A stretch of DNA of 42,017 nucleotides, from assembly GCA_963620965.1 (NCBI GenBank), contig CAVFCJ010000002.1:1-42017 (forward strand), read 5' to 3'. Shown here one piece after another: positions 5,041-38,893 of the stretch. How positions within the stretch are numbered: the stretch's first letter is position 1; every line of letters starts with the position of its first letter. The notes under the pieces were generated by a model. That model was not told the origin of the DNA. It made no database searches and was given only the letters and a program-made list of their open reading frames with translations. A program made the translations under genes and the position numbers. The DNA is from a bacterium (GTDB lineage Bacteria; Bacillota; Clostridia; Christensenellales; CAG-917).

Positions 5041-5174
5041 TTAAAAAAACCGCGCTATTTGGATGAAGAACGCGAAAGGCACGGCTTGAATCAAAACCCA
5101 GTGTACATAGACGTACACGATTTTGAGGCAAGCCGTGCCTGACAAAGTTATTCGCCAAATAGCACGGTTTTTTA
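5041..5174. repeat. Nested-hairpin element, copy A (variant apex). It probably also acts as terminator for the dnaK-operon tail.
   Basis: Outer arms TTAAAAAAACCGCGCTATTTGG / CCAAATAGCACGGTTTTTTA. Mid stem GGCACGGCTTG / CAAGCCGTGCC. Apical hairpin GTGTAC-N6-GTACAC. The last 3 nt form the TAA stop of the HIT gene. Confidence 0.7.
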
Positions 5175-13820: not shown

Positions 13821-13896
13821 GCTAGTGTGGCTCAGCAGGTAGAGCAGCTGATTCGTAATCAGCAGGTCGCCGGTCCGAATCCGGCCACTAGCTCCA
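13821..13896 (+). tRNA. tRNA-Thr, anticodon CGU, with encoded CCA.
   Basis: Cloverleaf folded by hand. Acceptor GCTAGTG/CACTAGC, D stem GCTC/GAGC, anticodon stem GCTGA/TCAGC with loop TTCGTAA, T stem GCCGG/CCGGC with loop TCCGAAT, discriminator T and CCA. Confidence 0.93.
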
Positions 13897-18775: not shown

Positions 18776-19444
18776 CTAGGCAAGCGCAATCCTTTCCCCA
18801 AACAGCACTCTGCCAAGTCGTATCATATTCGAGCCGTGTTCGAGTGCGATTTTGTAGTCGTTCGACATTCCCGCCGACAAATATTCGACGTTTACGCCGT
18901 CTTGCTTTATGCTCTTTGCGTCCTCGTATATCCGTTGCAACTTGTCGTAAAGACGGGCAAGTTCCGTCTTGTCTTCGAGGTTGGGAAGCACGCTCATAAC
19001 GCCTTTTATCTCGATGTGCGGATAATCTTTCATACTTTGTATGAAATCGAGTGTTTCTTCGGGTCGTACGCCGCCTTTTGTTATCTCTGCGCCCATATTT
19101 ATCTCAACAAGGCATTTTTGAATCACGTCGTGTTTAACGGCTTGTTTTTCAATCTCTTTCGCCAGTTCCACCCTATCGAGCGAGTGTATCAAGTCCACTT
19201 TTCCGACGCCATACTTGACTTTGTTGGTTTGAAGTTGACCGATGATATGCCAGACGTACTTTTCGTCATAGTGTTCTACAAACTCTTGCACTCGGTTTTC
19301 GCCCAACACAAAATCGGGCGCAACTGACATAAACTTGTCTATCGTGTCTTTCGACTGCATTTTGCATGCCGCCACGAGGTGTACGTTTCTATCGTACTTT
19401 GCCACCTCGTCCCGCACTTTTTGAAGGTTGTCGAGTAGTATCAT
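18776..19444 (-). CDS. yggS: YggS/YlmE-family pyridoxal-phosphate homeostasis protein.
   Basis: 222 aa with WHIIGQLQTNKVK and LSAGMSNDY motifs. Lies next to sepF. Confidence 0.88.
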   Translation of the reverse strand: MILLDNLQKVRDEVAKYDRNVHLVAACKMQSKDTIDKFMSVAPDFVLGENRVQEFVEHYDEKYVWHIIGQLQTNKVKYGVGKVDLIHSLDRVELAKEIEKQAVKHDVIQKCLVEINMGAEITKGGVRPEETLDFIQSMKDYPHIEIKGVMSVLPNLEDKTELARLYDKLQRIYEDAKSIKQDGVNVEYLSAGMSNDYKIALEHGSNMIRLGRVLFGERIALA

Positions 19445-19477: not shown

Positions 19478-19768
19478 CTTCCCCCTTCCTCACGTGTTTC
19501 CCCTACCGCCGTTCCCCCTCTGCATACTTTGAGGGAACCCACGGCGTCCGCTCCGCGTGGGGCAACACTGACGCGATTGACTTCGTAGCAATCGCTAGTT
19601 CGTTGCAAGCAACGAACGGCAGACGGGCTGTTGGCAATACAAATCGGCTGAAAGCCGTGCCACTGCGCTTTGTGTGCCAGCTACGCACCCAAACGGCACA
19701 GTCGGACGGTACTAATCGTCAAGCTCGGCGCTCCCTTTTCTCGCCGCCTTGCGGCTCGTGTTCCGTCT
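19478..19768. ncRNA. Candidate structured RNA or unclassified repeat, copy 1 of a ~290-nt element. Strand undetermined.
   Basis: Near-identical to 36957-37246. Dense local hairpins: CCCACG..CGTGGG, GCGATTG-N9-CAATCGC, GTTCGTTGC-AA-GCAACGAAC, CGGCT-GAA-AGCCG and TGTGCC-N16-GGCACA. One compensatory pair change distinguishes the copies. No convincing ORF and no match to any RNA family I can recall. Confidence 0.45.
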
Positions 19769-19794
19769 CTGTATAGGCAGAGTCTACGCTTCAA

Positions 19795-19923
19795 TTAAAA
19801 CTGCGCTAAATCGATGCATAACGCGAAAGCACCCCTTGAATGGCAACCCTAATTTACTAAGCGTAAATGAGTTGACAGGCAAGGGGTGCTGACAAAGTTA
19901 GGCGCGATTTAGCGCAGTTTTAA
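19795..19923. repeat. Nested-hairpin element, copy B (archetype). Probable terminator of the ABC transporter gene.
   Basis: Outer stem TTAAAACTGCGCTAAATCG / CGATTTAGCGCAGTTTTAA (perfect, 19 bp). Mid stem GCACCCCTTG / CAAGGGGTGC. Apex GAATGGCAACCCTA-ATTTAC-TAAGC-GTAAAT-GAGTTGACA. The ABC stop codon (19920-19922) lies in the terminal TTTTAA. Confidence 0.75.
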
Positions 19924-22865
19924 TCTACGCGTAGGGCGTCAACCACATTCTTGCGCGACGCCATAATCGCCGGAACTATACCCGAAATAATCGTTAGCGC
20001 CAAGCTCAAACATACGAGGATGAAGGCATGGAGTGGATGGAAATGGAGGAGAGATCCAATTCCGGTGACCGCTTTGATGATGAGCGACAGAATGGGGCAA
20101 AGGAGATATGTGACGACAATGCCGATAAGTCCGCTGCACAGACCGATGATGGAAGTTTCGGCAATAAAGACATTGCGAATATCTTTTTTGCGTGCGCCGA
20201 TTGCGCGGAGAATGCCGATTTCACGAGTACGTTCGACGACCGAGTTGGACGTGATGACTCCGATCATAACTGTGGATACGACAAGGGATATCGCAGCAAC
20301 GGCTATGAGCATTGCGGACACGAGGTCGAGCGTGCTTTGCATATTGACGAGGAACATTTCGGACACGTCAAAATAGCCGAGAGTGCCCTTGCCGGACTTT
20401 TGCCAAGCGGAAATATAGTTGCCCGAATTGGTCTTTTGATCGCTGTCATTGGGGAAAACAGTGACGTAATACGGACTCTTATCTGCACCGATTGCGCGCA
20501 TAAAATACGTGTATTTAAGTGCGGGCGTGTTGGCAACCGTTGCGAGCATCATATTGCCGTCGTTTATCTCTTTGTTGTCCAAACGAACGCCGAAAACCGT
20601 CTTTTTCCTGTCGCCGCTATTTGTTTTGTCCAGTTCCAACTGGCGCTGTGTAAAAGTGCTGTTCGCCGCGCTTTCGAGAGTGCTTTCGGCAAGCGAGGGC
20701 AGATAGCAAAGCGACGAACCGACGTATGTGTGTTCGGCTTCCTTCTTTGCACGGATAACGCCAACGATTGTGATTTCGTCGGAAGATTCGTCGTACATTT
20801 GTTGAAGTTTTTGTTGAGATTCTTCCGAATCGTCGTACCCCCACATCATCTCTTTGCTTTGGTCTTGAAGCATATCGCTCAAACCGCCGCTGCCTTCACC
20901 GCTCGATTCGCCGCCTTCGCCGAGTCCGAGATTTTCATATGTTTCGGTGCTTTCGTCGTAGGTGTAATAGGAATCGTTGTCGATGAGTTTGAACGACTGC
21001 CCCAAGAAGTATTCGTACGATACTTTTTCGGTGTCTATTTCGATGGGCTTGCCGTCCTCGCCGCGTTTGAGCGTGCCGTATTCGTCCTTCTCGTAAAGTT
21101 CGATTCCGAATGCGGAAAGTACCGATTTGCTAATGGTGTTGTCAGTGCCTACGCACAACAGAATTTCGTTTTTGTTTTGCGGGAATCTGCTTCCCTCGCC
21201 GATGAAATCGTAGGAACGCATCATAACGCCCTCGTCCGCAACGAGTTCTTGCCAATATTTTGCCTGCAAGCCGTTTTCGCCCAAAACCGTCGTAGCGCAC
21301 GCCGTCGTGGTGAGCGGTTGAGGCTGTTGCGAAGCGTCCTTGTACACAATGTTACCGTCCTTGTCGTATGTCTTTCTGACAAGGTTGTATCGCAAGCCAT
21401 AAGATATGCTCATCGCCGTGTAATAATCCTTTGGCATCGCTTTCATATAGTCGGCAAATTCTTCCGTCAAATCGTTCTTTTGAACGCCCGTCATAAAGGA
21501 TTTAACGACGGAATTTATCAACATCATCATCGCCGCAGTGCTGCTCGAACTGCTCGAAACCTTGATGTCGTCCGAATCGGGATAGAGGCTCGGATCTTCG
21601 GACGGCTTGTCCATCATGCTCGTCATCAAATCCATAATGGCGTTGTTGGATACGTTGTATTGATAAACGCCGAGAGGAACGCCCGAAAGCATTTCGGTTT
21701 CCATCTTGGCAAGATAGATGTTAAATCCGTTGTAAATTGACAAAACGAGCGCAAGACCTATAATGCCGATTGCGCCTGCAAATGACGTGAGCAACGTGCG
21801 GCGTTTTTTGGACACGAGGTTTTTAAGACTCAATCCGAACGCCATACCCGCGCTCATAGACGTGGGCTTGAACGCCTTGTCTTTTTTCTTTTTCTTCTTT
21901 GACAAACTGTTGAGTCCGAGTTTGTCGAACAAGGCTTTCGTCTCCTCGCCGACGTTTCTCATAGCACGTTTGCGCTTGCGGTTGGACGTCTTTTTCTTTT
22001 TGCCAGACTCCTCTTCGTTTTGCTCGTTTTGAGCGTTTATCTCCACGTTTTGTGATGTTAAACCGCTTGTTCGGTCCACTTCGACTTCTATTACGTCCGC
22101 CGTAGAATTTTCAAATGCGCTCGCTTCCGACTCGATTGTCAACGATTCTTCTGCGTCTTCGGATTGCTCGCAAAACTCGGTTTCGGGGTCGTACGGATTG
22201 GTGTCCTCGACAAGTTGACCGTCCTTAAAACGGCAAATACGCGTTGCGTACTGATAGGCGAGTTCGGCGTTGTGGGTAACCATAATGACAAGACGATTTT
22301 TTGAAATCTCTTGCAAAATGTCCATGACCTGCACGCTCAATTCGCTGTCAAGCGCACCTGTCGGCTCGTCGGCAAGAATGATTTTGGGGTCGTTGACAAT
22401 GGCTCTTGCGATTGCGACACGTTGCATTTGTCCGCCACTGAGTTGGTTGGGGCGTTTGTCGATTTGCTCGTGCATATTGACTTTGTGAAGCGCGGCAACC
22501 GCCTTTGCCCTGCGTGTTTTCTTCTTTTCGCCGACAAGGCTCAAAGCAAGTTCGACGTTTTCAAGCACGGTGAGATGCGGAATAAGATTGTAACTTTGAA
22601 ACACGAACCCTATGGTTGCGTTGCGATATGCGTCCCAATGCTCGTCGTCAAATTTCGCCGTAGAAACGCCGCCTATGACCAAGTCGCCCGACGTGTATCT
22701 GTCCAGCCCGCCGATGATGTTGAGCATTGTCGTTTTTCCGCAGCCGCTCGGACCGAGAATCGCCACGAATTCGCTTTCGCGGAAATTGAGCGACACTTTT
22801 CTCAAAGCGTGTACGGTCGTTGTGGCAGTGGGATAATCTTTTACTACGTCTTTAAGCTGAAGCAT
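19920..22865 (-). CDS. Fused ABC transporter with an N-terminal ATPase and a C-terminal FtsX/MacB-type permease carrying a large extracytoplasmic domain.
   Basis: 981 aa. Walker [10 protein letters not shown], signature LSGGQMQRV, Walker [14 protein letters not shown]-rich linker. The first TM is followed by ~470 aa of extracytoplasmic region, then an FtsX-like 3-TM bundle ([16 protein letters not shown]...). Confidence 0.88.
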
Positions 22866-24082: not shown

Positions 24083-24201
24083 GTCGCGCCAAATAGATGA
24101 AGAACGAGAAAGAGCCACCCGAACCGCAACCCTAATTTACTTATAGTAAATGAGTTGTCGGATGGGTGGCTCTGACAAAGTAATTCGCTATTTGGCACGG
24201 C
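24083..24201. repeat. Nested-hairpin element, copy C2. It overlaps the 3' end of the M28 peptidase gene.
   Basis: Outer arms GTCGCGCCAAATAG / CTATTTGGCACGGC. Mid stem GAGCCACCC / GGGTGGCTC. Apex CGCAACCCTA-ATTTAC-TTATA-GTAAAT-GAGTTG. The right arm encodes the last codons (R-A-K, part of S) and the TAG stop of the gene. Confidence 0.7.
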
Positions 24202-33661: not shown

Positions 33662-33792
33662 TTAAAAACTTCGATATTTAGATGCATAACAAGGAAGCGC
33701 CCCTTGACTGGCAACCCTAATTTACTATCCGTAAATGAGTTGACAGTCAAGGGGTGCTAACAAAGTTAGGCGCTATTTAGCGCGGTTTTTTA
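33662..33792. repeat. Nested-hairpin element, copy D.
   Basis: Right arm CTATTTAGCGCGGTTTTTTA; the left arm TTAAAAACTTCGATATTTAG is partly degenerate. Mid stem GCGCCCCTTGAC / GTCAAGGGGTGC (one G-T pair). Apex TGGCAACCCTA-ATTTAC-TATCC-GTAAAT-GAGTTGACA. Its last 3 nt are the stop codon of the 41-aa ORF. Confidence 0.7.
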
Positions 33793-35610: not shown

Positions 35611-35640
35611 AATCGGCATTTTTTAATGCCGATTTGTGTT
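35611..35640 (+). terminator. Weak intrinsic terminator after the PRT gene.
   Basis: AATCGGCAT-TTTTTA-ATGCCGATT followed by TGTGTT. Confidence 0.45.
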
Positions 35641-35724
35641 GATAAAGGCTTTTATTTGCATATTTTCGCAAAATGCCGCACATCAACTCATCCATGCTTT
35701 GAGCGATATAGAAAAGGAAACGTT

Positions 35725-36936
35725 ATGCTTGAACTTCTAATGCCGGCGGGCAATCTCAAAAAACTTAAAACCGCTTTCCACTTCGGCGCAGATGCCGTAT
35801 ATATAGGCGGAAAATCGTTTTCGTTGCGCGCTTTTGCGGACAATTTTTCAAACGAGGAAATCGCCGAGGGCGTGAAATTTGCGCACGCTCTCAACAAAAA
35901 AGTGTACGTCACGGCAAACATATTCGCAAGAAACGCAGACCTTAAATCTCTCAAAGAATACTTCGCGTTTTTGCAATCCGCAAACGTTGACGCGGTGCTT
36001 ATAAGCGATGTGGGGCTTGTCGCGCTGTGTAAAGAGGTCGCTCCGTCGCTGACGACTCATTTGTCCACGCAGGCAAACACCACCAATCTGCTCGCCGTCA
36101 AATTCTGGCAAAGTATGGGCGTAAAGCGAGTGGTGCTTGCAAGAGAACTCGGACTTGAAGAAATAAAGCAAATTCACGAGGCAGTGCCGGATATGGAACT
36201 CGAAGCGTTCGTTCACGGCGCAATGTGTATGTCTTACAGCGGTCGCTGCCTGTTGTCCACGTACTTTTCGGGACGTAGCGCAAACAGAGGCGCATGTATT
36301 CAGCCATGCAGATGGGGTTATCGCATAACCGAAACCGAACGCCACGACTCAAAGCCGCTCGACATAGAGCAAGATGAAAGAGGAACATATTTTATGAACA
36401 GTCGCGACTTAAGATTGCTCGAACATATTCCCTCTCTTGCAAAATGCGGAATCGTGTCGCTGAAAGTGGAAGGCAGAATGAAAAGCGAGTTTTACGTCGC
36501 GACCGTCGCAAACGCATATCGCCACGCAATCGACGAATATTTGCAAACGGGTAAAATCGAAAATACGGCAAAATACAACGCCGACCTCGAAACCGTCGCT
36601 CACCGCACCTACACAGACGCATACTTCGAGGGCGACAACCTCGACACCGTATGCCTTGACGAGGGACAATCCCCTGAAAAATATATCTTCACCGCCATCG
36701 TGCAGAACGTCGAAAACGGCATAGTTACGGTTGAAATGCGAAATCGCTTCAAATCGGGTGAAATGCTTTTCGTCTTATCCCCCGACCAAAACAACGGCAA
36801 GTCGTTTACTCTTGGCGCAATCACGCACACGCAAGACAAACTCCTCACCGACGACGCAAAACTCGTCCAACACTCTTATTCTTTTGCTTGCCCGTTGAAC
36901 TTGAAATCGGGCGATATACTGCTGAAAGAAATCTGA
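35725..36936 (+). CDS. Peptidase U32-family protein (collagenase-like, RlhA/TrhP-type).
   Basis: Starts MLELLMPAGNLKKLKTAFHFGADAVYIGG behind an AAGGAAA SD. Contains the U32 signature region (EAFVHGAMCMSYSGRCLLS). The track's 35626 start adds 33 atypical residues. Confidence 0.85.
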   Translation: MLELLMPAGNLKKLKTAFHFGADAVYIGGKSFSLRAFADNFSNEEIAEGVKFAHALNKKVYVTANIFARNADLKSLKEYFAFLQSANVDAVLISDVGLVALCKEVAPSLTTHLSTQANTTNLLAVKFWQSMGVKRVVLARELGLEEIKQIHEAVPDMELEAFVHGAMCMSYSGRCLLSTYFSGRSANRGACIQPCRWGYRITETERHDSKPLDIEQDERGTYFMNSRDLRLLEHIPSLAKCGIVSLKVEGRMKSEFYVATVANAYRHAIDEYLQTGKIENTAKYNADLETVAHRTYTDAYFEGDNLDTVCLDEGQSPEKYIFTAIVQNVENGIVTVEMRNRFKSGEMLFVLSPDQNNGKSFTLGAITHTQDKLLTDDAKLVQHSYSFACPLNLKSGDILLKEI

Positions 36937-36956
36937 AAAACAATCAAAAATTAAAA

Positions 36957-37246
36957 CTTCCCCCTTCCTCACGTGTTTCCCCTACCGCCGTTCCCCCTCT
37001 GCATTCTTTGAGGGAACCCACGGCGTCCGCTCCGCGTGGGGCAACACTGACGCGATTGACTTCGTAGCAATCGCTAGTTCGTTGCACGCAACGAACGGCA
37101 GACGGGCTGTTGGCAATACAAATCGGCTGAAAGCCGTGCCACTGCGCTTTGTGCGCCAGCTACGCACCCAAACGGCGCAGTCGCTTGTACTGTCCGTCAA
37201 GCTCGGCGCTCCCTTTTCTCGCCGCCCTGCGGCTCGTGTTCCGTCT
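36957..37246. ncRNA. Candidate structured RNA or unclassified repeat, copy 2 of the ~290-nt element.
   Basis: Aligns end to end with 19478-19768. Five single-base differences, two of which form a compensatory pair, plus one replaced 15/16-nt patch. It starts 20 nt after the U32 stop codon with no terminator between them. Confidence 0.45.
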
Positions 37247-37289
37247 GCTAAATTGCACATTCCGTTTATAAGTACATCCTTAATAATTA

Positions 37290-37418
37290 TTAAAACCGCG
37301 ATATTGAGATGAAGAACAAGAAAGAGACATCCGAATGGCAACCCTAATTTACATAGCGTAAATGAGTTGACAAGCGGATGCCTCTGACACAGTTATTCGC
37401 TCAATAGCGCGGTTTTAA
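37290..37418. repeat. Nested-hairpin element, copy E. Probable terminator of the 41934..37415 operon.
   Basis: Outer arms TTAAAACCGCGATATTGAG / CTCAATAGCGCGGTTTTAA. Mid stem GAGACATCCG / CGGATGCCTC (one A-C). Apex GAATGGCAACCCTA-ATTTAC-ATAGC-GTAAAT-GAGTTGACA. The stop codon at 37415-37417 lies inside the terminal TTTTAA. Confidence 0.75.
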
Positions 37419-38893
37419 TGGTTGGCGACGTAGTCGTTAGCCCCCGTAAAGTCCGCATAATAATTCTTCGCTTCGCACTCGAATGTGCTGTCCGATTTGA
37501 GAGCGATGACGGTCGTGCCGCGTTGAGACTTTTCTTTGTAGATGCCGGCATAGGCGAGATAGTCGATGGACATACCGTAGGTGAGGCGAATAGAGCGGGA
37601 CGCGCCGGCCGGCGTATAGTTTACGGAAAAGTTGTTGTAGTGGTCGTGTCCGCAGAAAACGCCTTGCATACCGTGCGTAAGACCCGTTTCAAAAAGCGTG
37701 TCGGTGCTGCTTCCGCAGAATACGCCGTAGGTGCGAACGCCGTTCTTCTTCTTGTCGGATTCGCCCATAGTTCCGTAAATAAACTCGGTTGTGCCTTTAG
37801 CGGAAGCGAGAATCGTGCCGCGAGTCAATTCATCTTTGGATTTGCCCGATTCGATGACGTTTGCCCAAGCGTCGCGGTACTCAGCGAGCGGAATGTGGAA
37901 GAACACGAGGTTGTTGACTTCAACGTTGTTGTTTGCGGCTTTGAGTTTGTCCATCTCGGTTGCGTACCAGTCGATTTGGCATTGATGGATGTTGTCGTAC
38001 TTCCACGCCATACCGAAATAGTCGCCGTCGGTGTAACTGTGGCTGTCGAATGTGACGAGTGCTTGGTTGATGGGACTTACGGAGCCGCTCGGATTCTTGA
38101 CGACGATGACGTCGTTGCCGAAGCCTCTAGAAGTTTTGCTTATCTCGTCTTTCTCGTCACAGAAGCCTGCTCTGAAAAGGCAATATTTGAAACCTGCGTT
38201 CGCATAGTAGTCGCAGATCTGGTCGCGTCCGTAAAGGCTGTACATCTCGGTGTCGTGGTTGCCGAACGCAAACGTCCAGTACACGCCGAGTTTTTCCATC
38301 ATCGTCGCAAAGATTTTGGTTGCGTTGAGGTTGTTGAACGTGCCTGCTTGGAAGGGAACGGGATACGCAATATCGCCCGTCACGACCACAAGGTCGGGTT
38401 GAGATTGACGAATCATCGTTGCAACCGCACTCATAGCCCAGTTGTCTTTCGTGCCGGAAAACGCACCGCCACCGATATGTACGTCGGTGAATTGCAACAC
38501 TTTGAAATCTCTGTCCGCCTCTTTTTCAAACGTCCAATATCCAAGATCGTCGTCAAAAGTCGGCACAAGTTGCGCATGCTCGGTGTATTCGACCTTTTCA
38601 AAACTCGAAGCAAGCGAAAGGTGCGCGTTGGTATTGACGGCCGAGGCAATTGCGCAACCGCTGAAAAAAATGACGATTGCAAGCACCACGCAGCCCGTGA
38701 TAATCAAGGCTTTCGCGGTTTTTCTTTTCTTTTGTTCGGGCGTGAGTTGTTTTTTCTCTTTCTTGCCCTTCTTTACCTTTTTACCATCAAAGTCTTTGAG
38801 TATACCATCGTTTTCGTCGTTTTCTTCAAGACCGTTTATGTCTTGTTGCGATTCCTCTTGCGGAATATCCGCGTTTTTGATTTCGTCGCTCAT
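37415..38893 (-). CDS. Membrane-anchored calcineurin-like metallophosphoesterase.
   Basis: 492 aa with AGGAGG SD. Acidic/basic N-terminal tail, then one TM (ALIITGCVVLAIVIFFSGCAIA). Motifs TDVHIG, TGDIAYP, FGNHDTE, FFHIPL and CGHDHYN. Confidence 0.85.
   Translation of the reverse strand: MSDEIKNADIPQEESQQDINGLEENDENDGILKDFDGKKVKKGKKEKKQLTPEQKKRKTAKALIITGCVVLAIVIFFSGCAIASAVNTNAHLSLASSFEKVEYTEHAQLVPTFDDDLGYWTFEKEADRDFKVLQFTDVHIGGGAFSGTKDNWAMSAVATMIRQSQPDLVVVTGDIAYPVPFQAGTFNNLNATKIFATMMEKLGVYWTFAFGNHDTEMYSLYGRDQICDYYANAGFKYCLFRAGFCDEKDEISKTSRGFGNDVIVVKNPSGSVSPINQALVTFDSHSYTDGDYFGMAWKYDNIHQCQIDWYATEMDKLKAANNNVEVNNLVFFHIPLAEYRDAWANVIESGKSKDELTRGTILASAKGTTEFIYGTMGESDKKKNGVRTYGVFCGSSTDTLFETGLTHGMQGVFCGHDHYNNFSVNYTPAGASRSIRLTYGMSIDYLAYAGIYKEKSQRGTTVIALKSDSTFECEAKNYYADFTGANDYVANH

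Follow-up and report, generated by a model that had tools for sequence, protein, structure and literature searches.

Two loci in the 42,017-nt stretch of DNA analysed here (the window) carry the same series on the plus strand: a 290-nt element, a short linker, a nested hairpin (HP) and then the stop codon of a minus-strand gene. This shared order had been described in an initial annotation as a composite module, and it was borne out at both loci. It raises the question of whether the 290-nt element and the hairpin belong together as parts of one module or are two elements that come to lie side by side for reasons of their own. The features concerned are the following.

18776-19444, minus strand: yggS-like gene for a PLP-binding protein (ORF list; Pfam Ala_racemase_N, E 3e-18)
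19478-19768, plus strand: copy 1 of the 290-nt family, with modules A (19478-19569), B (19570-19657) and C (19658-19768)
19769-19794, plus strand: linker of locus 1, apparently a shortened module D (by-eye comparison with the 3′ flanks of 41 copies)
19795-19923, plus strand: HP element B, terminating on the ABC/FtsX stop codon (nhmmer family match, 103 bits)
19920-22865, minus strand: gene for a fused ABC ATPase/FtsX permease, its stop codon under HP B (Pfam ABC_tran, FtsX)
35626-36936, plus strand: U32 peptidase gene (Pfam Peptidase_U32, E 4e-92)
36957-37246, plus strand: copy 2 of the 290-nt family, with modules A (36957-37048), B (37049-37136) and C (37137-37246)
37247-37289, plus strand: module D of locus 2, the 43-nt spacer of the initial annotation, conserved after most 290-nt copies
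37290-37418, plus strand: HP element E, terminating on the metallophosphoesterase stop codon (nhmmer match, 102 bits)
37415-38893, minus strand: metallophosphoesterase gene, its stop codon under HP E (Pfam Metallophos)

Pairwise alignment of the two loci showed the 290-nt copies (19478-19768 and 36957-37246) to be ~96% identical, and the variable stems of HP B and HP E to differ, both as first reported. Each HP is 129 nt in length, and its 3′-most bases overlap the stop codon of the minus-strand gene. At the other end, copy 1 begins 33 nt from the start codon of the yggS-like gene and copy 2 begins 20 nt after the stop codon of the U32 peptidase gene. A plus-strand ORF overlapping the metallophosphoesterase gene gave no Pfam match. 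The remaining HP copies of the window (~5049-5167, 24085-24199 and 33669-33786) were also correctly described as lacking a 290-nt partner, with no 290-family match nearby. A search of the whole window against Rfam at the gathering threshold gave a tRNA at 13821-13893 as the sole match (plus strand, 68.8 bits, with an anticodon loop consistent with ACG, i.e. Arg), and a search of the region 36900-37450 at E values up to 10 gave nothing relevant and no intron model, the best E value being above 1.

The window's own genome (G000; 1.45 Mb in 131 contigs, 47% G+C, 96% complete) contains ~56 copies or fragments of the 290-nt family, 88-98% identical to one another. With module boundaries set from variant copies in which the middle is swapped or missing, the 290 nt divide into modules A (positions 1-92), B (93-180) and C (181-290). 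Some variants carry a 35-nt segment in place of B, some have a 158-nt insert at position 235/243, and some retain the terminal 22 and 29 nt alone, around an unrelated middle. In most copies conservation extends beyond position 290 into a further module, D (~42 nt, of the GCGAATTAGCACATTCCGTTTATAAGTAGGCTTCGAATAAGT type), which occurs in 14 internal intergenic regions, all 14 of them with the 290 family present, and never without it. On this comparison of copies, the family would really be an A-B-C-D element of ~335 nt whose middle can be swapped and whose 3′ end is ragged. The linkers at the two loci, which the initial annotation took to be unrelated spacers, have accordingly to be read differently: 37247-37289 is conserved module D, and the 26-nt linker at 19769-19794, which has GGCAGAGT and ACGCTTC-AAT in common with the variant D of other copies, looks like a shortened GGCAGAGT variant of the same module. 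With both spacers taken as module D, the 290-family element therefore adjoins the hairpin directly at the two loci. Past D, further modules follow in other copies: T, a G-rich hairpin plus a ATTATTAATTATTCATTATT tract; S, a GTCCGC...GCGGAC hairpin followed by a second ...CGTCT-GCGAAT junction; and X, of ~120 nt.

The ends of the 290 family (CTTCCCCCTTCC... and ...GTGTTCCGTCT plus D) showed no terminal inverted repeats, and no consistent target-site duplication was found, clean insertions showing ambiguous microhomology at most (e.g., CCGTCT/TTGTCT). The family thus has neither the terminal inverted repeats nor the fixed-length target-site duplication of a MITE. Its 5′ flank, AAWTAAAR, is conserved, and the flanks upstream of A are unrelated beyond ~10 nt. 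The ORF lists revealed no consistent ORF in the repeats. By exact-pattern matching, the family was also found in human-gut MAGs titled Firmicutes bacterium CAG:475, CAG:238, Christensenella sp. UBA6880, UMGS1042 and similar.

The second partner, HP, is a nested hairpin of 120-130 nt, a near-palindrome with TTTT on both sides. We counted 86 HP loci in G000 and 98 in the complete genome of a congener, G043, the detection of HP and of the modules depending on the nhmmer and blastn thresholds. The termini of the two window copies (37290-37300/37408-37418 and 19795-19805/19913-19923) have the form TTAAAAC...GTTTTAA, giving a TAA stop per strand at each end. The AAC...GTT ends bear a superficial likeness to integron attC core sites; the HP copies are dispersed at housekeeping genes, not in cassette arrays.

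The 290-family repeats are a main cause of the fragmentation of this MAG. Of 56 G000 intergenic regions with a 290-family match, 35 touch a contig edge (e.g., C17, C18, C30, C42, C58, C60, C63-C65, C75 and C80). As 290-family matches lie so often at contig edges, the copy numbers given here are underestimates.

How regular the pairing is can be judged from a genome-wide census of the kind that the initial annotation had proposed, namely how many 290-nt copies lie within 50 nt of a nested hairpin and on which side. In G000 the HP lay on the 3′ side, within 50 nt of 5 of the 41 assembled 290 3′ ends, within 100 nt of 12 and within 200 nt of 15, leaving 26 of the 41 without an HP within 200 nt. 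The corresponding numbers for G043 (1,647,214 bp, with 59 C modules) were 0, 6 and 12 of 42 ends, rising to 15 of 42 within 400 nt. A 704-kb sample of a further relative, G034, had an HP within 50 nt of 1 of 19 ends and within 200 nt of 2 (both within 150 nt), and among the public MAG loci with full copies and enough flank an HP was found within 100 nt in 2 of 35 cases and within 200 nt in 4 of 35. When these were pooled, 33 of 137 ends had an HP within 200 nt, and in all 33 the orientation was the same. The gap between the 290 3′ end and HP ranged from 18 to ~390 nt, the modules in between (D, X, S, T) differing from case to case. Three HPs of G000 were found on the 5′ side, no more than 60 nt from a 290 start and all oppositely oriented; five HPs that precede a 290 5′ end are likewise in reverse orientation, and each of them lies at the stop codon of the other gene. 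The regularity seen at the two loci therefore extends to order and orientation (33/33 pairs), but the pairing itself is not obligatory (5/41 within 50 nt and 15/41 within 200 nt in G000).

The constant order is accounted for by the position of each repeat relative to genes. The right end of HP faces the stop codon of a gene in 68 of 70 full copies in G000 and in 77 of 78 in G043, usually within 15 nt. Three HPs of G043 that lie at lagging-strand genes flip with the gene, and HP polarity follows the gene, not the 290-nt element. The 290 family has a rule of its own: its 3′ (D) end faces the stop codon of an opposite-strand gene in 37 of 40 copies in G000 (p 2e-8), 31 of 42 in G043 and 13 of 19 in G034. 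This polarity is seen in copies without any HP (~22 of 25 in G000 face a stop codon) and, by 10:2, in tandem gene pairs, which would allow both orientations. Divergent intergenic regions of G000 contain no member of the 290 family and one HP. Given the HP rule and the 290 rule, a gene end that carries both must read stop-HP-D-C-B-A. The order and orientation of the pair thus follow from two independent polarity rules.

Replication-strand bias was considered as a source of the shared orientation and was rejected for HP on the ground of the three lagging-strand copies that flip with their genes. In G043, 3 of the 78 full HPs adjoin lagging-strand genes, compared with ~25% of genes being on the lagging strand (p 1e-6). 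This scarcity indicates a replication-strand or leading-gene bias on top of the gene polarity, which would fit spreading that depends on single-stranded DNA or on the replication fork.

Polarity sets the order of the pair; its frequency was assessed from the internal intergenic regions of G000, with genes called by our own crude codon-usage ORF caller. Twelve regions contained both repeats, 31 HP only, nine 290 only and 744 neither (odds ratio 32, p 3e-11). The association holds in convergent regions only (odds ratio 18.6, p 2e-4) and in tandem regions only (26.5, p 4e-6), and it persists in regions of at least 300 nt (odds ratio 10) and in regions with a gene 3′ end. An HP lies between a stop-facing 290 copy and the stop codon in 16 of 37 cases in G000 and 16 of 31 in G043 (43-52%), exceeding the base rate of ~6% of gene stops with an HP (p 2e-10 in G000 and 6e-12 in G043). 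The mutual enrichment is ~8-fold over the base rate in two genomes, the genomes compared being kin rather than independent samples, and G000 and most of its relatives being fragmented MAGs with frequent contig breaks inside these repeats. The pairing of 290 and HP is real, yet it is a tendency rather than a rule.

HP is also not the sole neighbour of the 290 family. The interval between a stop-facing 290 copy and the stop codon was filled by HP in 16 cases, by T only in six and by neither in 15 in G000 (n = 37), and by HP in 16, T only in four and neither in 11 in G043 (n = 31); where neither was present, D often lay within 0-50 nt of the stop codon. These counts make HP the commonest of several alternative gene-proximal partners. 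Odds ratios for the sharing of intergenic regions range from ~5 to 60 across D, T, S, X, HP and 290 (290-T 7, 290-X 12, HP-T 10, HP-X 9), and the value of 32 for 290-HP is the highest among clearly separate families.

To follow the histories of the two parts, orthologous loci were located in 52 congeners through the C-terminal 199 residues encoded by each flanking gene, and 30 orthologous loci were annotated per gene. Down to ~67-72% protein identity, the phosphoesterase stop codon has an HP at 23 of the 30 loci and the ABC/FtsX stop codon at 26 of 30; close relatives may have different HP sequence variants at one stop codon. Among the 30 versions of locus 2, a plus-oriented 290 directly beside HP is found only in G000. 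G034 has no 290 there, a T module after the U32 stop codon and a different HP variant, and in G040, G004, G009, G012 and G049 the members of the 290 family are flipped, with C-D-T towards the U32 stop codon, while HP stays on the phosphoesterase stop codon. At locus 1, several relatives (G012, G031, G043, G060 and others) have the HP and no 290 within the 1.3 kb fetched. These data agree with the initial view that the two parts have different histories, HP being kept on the same stop codons in 23/30 and 26/30 congeners and the adjacent 290 being lineage-specific. The U32-phosphoesterase intergenic region of G040, G034, G004, G009 and G012 varies from 213 to 992 nt with entirely different module sets, the flanking proteins being 91-95% identical. 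At fixed gene ends, repeats turn over very rapidly.

When 19 further regions of G000 were compared with G034, G040 and G012 by way of their flanks, a similar variety emerged. At C118 there is HP only in G034 and G040, and 290 in G012; at C8 there is HP only in G034 and G040; C1 has HP only in G040, 290 only in G034 and both in G000. Wholly empty sites (~30-50 nt between the genes) are present in one or two relatives at C6, C13 and C15, and at C10 a T module in G012 and G040 corresponds to a 290-family cassette in G000 and G034 (A-C-D in G000). By alignment, C6 and C15 each contain a clean insertion of ~300 nt in G000 with no HP involved. The inserted elements (C15:16732-17044, compared with G040, and C6:23841-24195) are 290-family variants without the A module. 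The empty site at C15 reads TTTGTCT, the inserted element has TTCCGTCT at its end, and the insert is also preceded by CCGTCT, possibly as microhomology or a target motif; the ...CGTCT-GCGAAT junction at C15 recurs after module S. The initial annotation had proposed a search for empty sites in relatives. Clean boundaries were obtained at other loci (C6, C15 and C118); at either window locus no clean empty site was present among the relatives examined, which have different cassettes there.

At C118 (G000 C118:1868-2373 versus G012 C25:5720-6480) the element is A-B-C in G000 and a short A-C in G012. As the D and X flanks are identical, the middle module has been exchanged in place, which on alignment suggests gene conversion between family members; gene conversion would also explain the strong likeness of the two 290 copies of the window. 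High HP and 290 copy numbers coincide in the same ~22 of the 52 congeneric genomes, with congeners of similar size having few or none, and G002, G039 and G059 are examples with some HPs and 290 counts at the background level. This suggests a clade-specific bloom, or a common mobilising or permissive factor, for HP and 290, although the correlation of copy numbers is weak evidence because congeneric genomes are kin.

We consider that in the "composite module" two independent repeat families of gene 3′ ends, both non-coding and of high copy number, have probably come to lie side by side secondarily, within mosaic arrays. The repeats are extragenic, non-coding and present in high copy; their modules are separable and occur in varying combinations; and the content of one locus differs between close relatives. 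The independence of the parts, both polarity rules and the enrichment are observations. HP, with its fixed polarity and its anchorage on the stop codon, would be the older occupant of a gene end and the more persistent one. Members of the 290 family may be laid down, or retained, downstream of gene ends with their D side towards the stop codon, and would arrive or leave separately. Where both occur at one gene end, HP would necessarily be gene-proximal and 290 distal, giving the constant order and orientation. The ~8-fold enrichment may arise because the ends of transcription units offer both families a permissive niche and because modules accrete beside existing AT-rich, TAA-bearing module ends by recombination or insertion activity. 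With an odds ratio for 290-HP ~3 times that of other cross-family pairs (7-12) and high also in convergent regions only, the shared niche alone may not suffice, and a direct affinity between the two repeats may play some part. Ragged 3′ ends, in-place swaps and alternative cassettes favour recombinational formation of mosaics over precise cut-and-paste.

The same enrichment, and the excess of the 290-HP odds ratio over those of other module pairs, would also be expected if 290 were a non-autonomous mobile element that homes to the stop-bearing hairpin modules HP and T or to their AT-rich, TAA-containing ends, much as IS110/IS1111 elements seek out REP or attC sites and group IIC introns seek out terminators. 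Four or five loci have HP in relatives before 290 appears, and there is a resemblance to the termini of HP and T both in the conserved 5′ flank (AAWTAAAR) and in the 3′ end (AATAAGT). We nevertheless regard such homing as unlikely. The junction is not fixed, with gaps of 18 to ~390 nt and varied intervening modules; the clean insertions at C6 and C15 are at HP-free sites; about two-thirds of 290 copies have no HP within 200 nt; the family has no terminal inverted repeats and no consistent target duplication; and C1 is 290-only in a relative (G034) and has both repeats in G000. In the fragmented but 96%-complete G000 there was no match to PF01548, PF01797 or PF07282 (controls matched) and none to RVT_1, i.e. 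no Y1, IS110-type DEDD, TnpB or reverse-transcriptase gene was detected. The more specific form of this idea in the initial annotation, that 290 targets the hairpin as some IS elements target REP sequences and class C introns target terminators, is not supported, given the variable gaps, the HP-free insertions and the two-thirds of copies without an HP within 200 nt. An IS110/IS1111 or IS200/IS605 element would differ from what was found, there being no fixed insertion point relative to HP and no cognate transposase match in G000, as would a group II (class C) intron, with no Rfam intron match in 36900-37450 and no RVT_1 in the genome. An extension of the homing idea, to which we give slightly less probability, is that 290 would build gene ends stepwise into gene-polar cassettes, a stop-adapter hairpin first and a structured element second. 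If homing and stepwise cassettes were true, they would represent a new kind of insertion system in Firmicutes, directed at hairpins or stop codons and lacking any recognisable transposase.

It is improbable that 290 would be a plus-strand ncRNA gene with HP or T as its terminator, in a transcription unit convergent with the neighbouring gene. By RNAalifold, modules A, B and C fold into hairpins, as an RNA might, with a little covariation, and G-U versus A-C strand asymmetry on these structures gave conflicting signals. The near-palindromic HP with TTTT on both sides, and T, which in the 290 (plus) direction is a hairpin followed by a T-rich tract, could in principle terminate transcription. 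No conserved promoter was seen upstream of module A across the flanks of the copies, promoter and terminator scans at both window loci were at chance level, and there was no Rfam match. Neither HP nor T is present at 15 of 37 and 11 of 31 stop-facing copies, and the middle module is freely swapped or missing. That HP might terminate a plus-strand 290-nt RNA, as had been proposed, does not accord with an HP polarity that follows the abutting gene, nor with the retention of HP at these stop codons in relatives that have no 290.

A single composite element of 290, linker and HP that moves as a unit is very hard to credit, even with order and orientation alike at both window loci and in 33 of 33 adjacent pairs. 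The HP variable stems differ where the 290 parts are 96% identical, the linkers differ in length and content, and each part is found alone at orthologous loci. Queries spanning the C-D-HP junction gave only 74-78% matches elsewhere in G000, G034 and G043; a composite copied as one propagated unit was rejected on this ground, junction-spanning matches being at most 78% identical against 88-98% among 290 copies. Pure coincidence of two abundant repeats (~56 and ~86 loci in 1.45 Mb, most copies of each without the other), which the initial annotation thought would follow if hairpin-free 290 copies existed, as they do (about two-thirds without an HP within 200 nt), has almost nothing left to recommend it against an odds ratio of 32 (p 3e-11), an HP between 290 and the stop codon in 43-52% of cases versus a base rate of 6% (p 2e-10 and 6e-12), and the replication of the ~8-fold enrichment in the complete congener genome G043.

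The juxtaposition of two independent gene-end repeat families, which we favour, removes the tempting but wrong reading of a two-part mobile or RNA module. In its place stands a testable set of rules for two uncatalogued repeat families of small-genome gut Clostridia, oriented by gene ends and stacked in a predictable order. For annotators, it means that the seemingly "empty" intergenic stretches of 300-1,000 nt, like many MAG contig breaks, are to be read as mosaics of repeats, not as RNA genes or parts of operons.

Group IIC introns target terminators or attC. IS elements that insert specifically into REP sequences, such as ISPpu9/ISPpu10, ISPsy8 and others, have been described (Tobes & Pareja, 2006, PMC1525189). 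As here, in both systems a longer element lies beside or within a palindromic repeat more often than by chance. These elements, however, take a fixed position in the hairpin and either encode or rely on an enzyme that is known (for the IS elements a DEDD transposase with bridge/seek RNA, for the introns a reverse transcriptase), whereas the 290-HP junctions vary, no such gene was detected, and Rfam gave neither a group II match nor any other.

In our reading, the pairing of 290 and HP belongs with the ordinary BIME/BOX kind of mosaic repeat stacking, to which an ~8-fold mutual enrichment is added. In a BIME, a REP or palindromic unit is joined with other short motifs in recurring orders. BIMEs of enterobacteria and NIMEs of Neisseria are, like the repeats described here, arrays at gene ends with interchangeable modules, whose contents differ between close relatives. 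Background on such high-copy extragenic repeats is given in PMC3049150. Here, in contrast, a stop-codon-anchored nested hairpin of 120-130 nt is the palindromic unit, paired with a multi-hairpin element of 240-440 nt. No RAYT/Y1 transposase gene was found in G000, and the order is set by gene-relative polarity, in BIMEs by alternating REP orientation.

In Streptococcus pneumoniae, the BOX repeats are modular (boxA, boxB, boxC), and SPRITE is a terminator-like hairpin enriched near the 3′ ends of CDSs (Croucher et al., 2011, PMC3049150). All three pneumococcal families (BOX, RUP and SPRITE) favour regions downstream of CDSs, and overlapping or inserted repeats have been reported (PMC3049150). 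The 290 family resembles BOX in being modular (A-B-C-D), and HP and T resemble SPRITE. There is no sequence similarity to BOX, RUP or SPRITE, and no matching IS with similar ends was found. The anchoring of HP on stop codons and the gene-relative polarity of both families are stronger than has been described for the pneumococcal repeats (PMC3049150).
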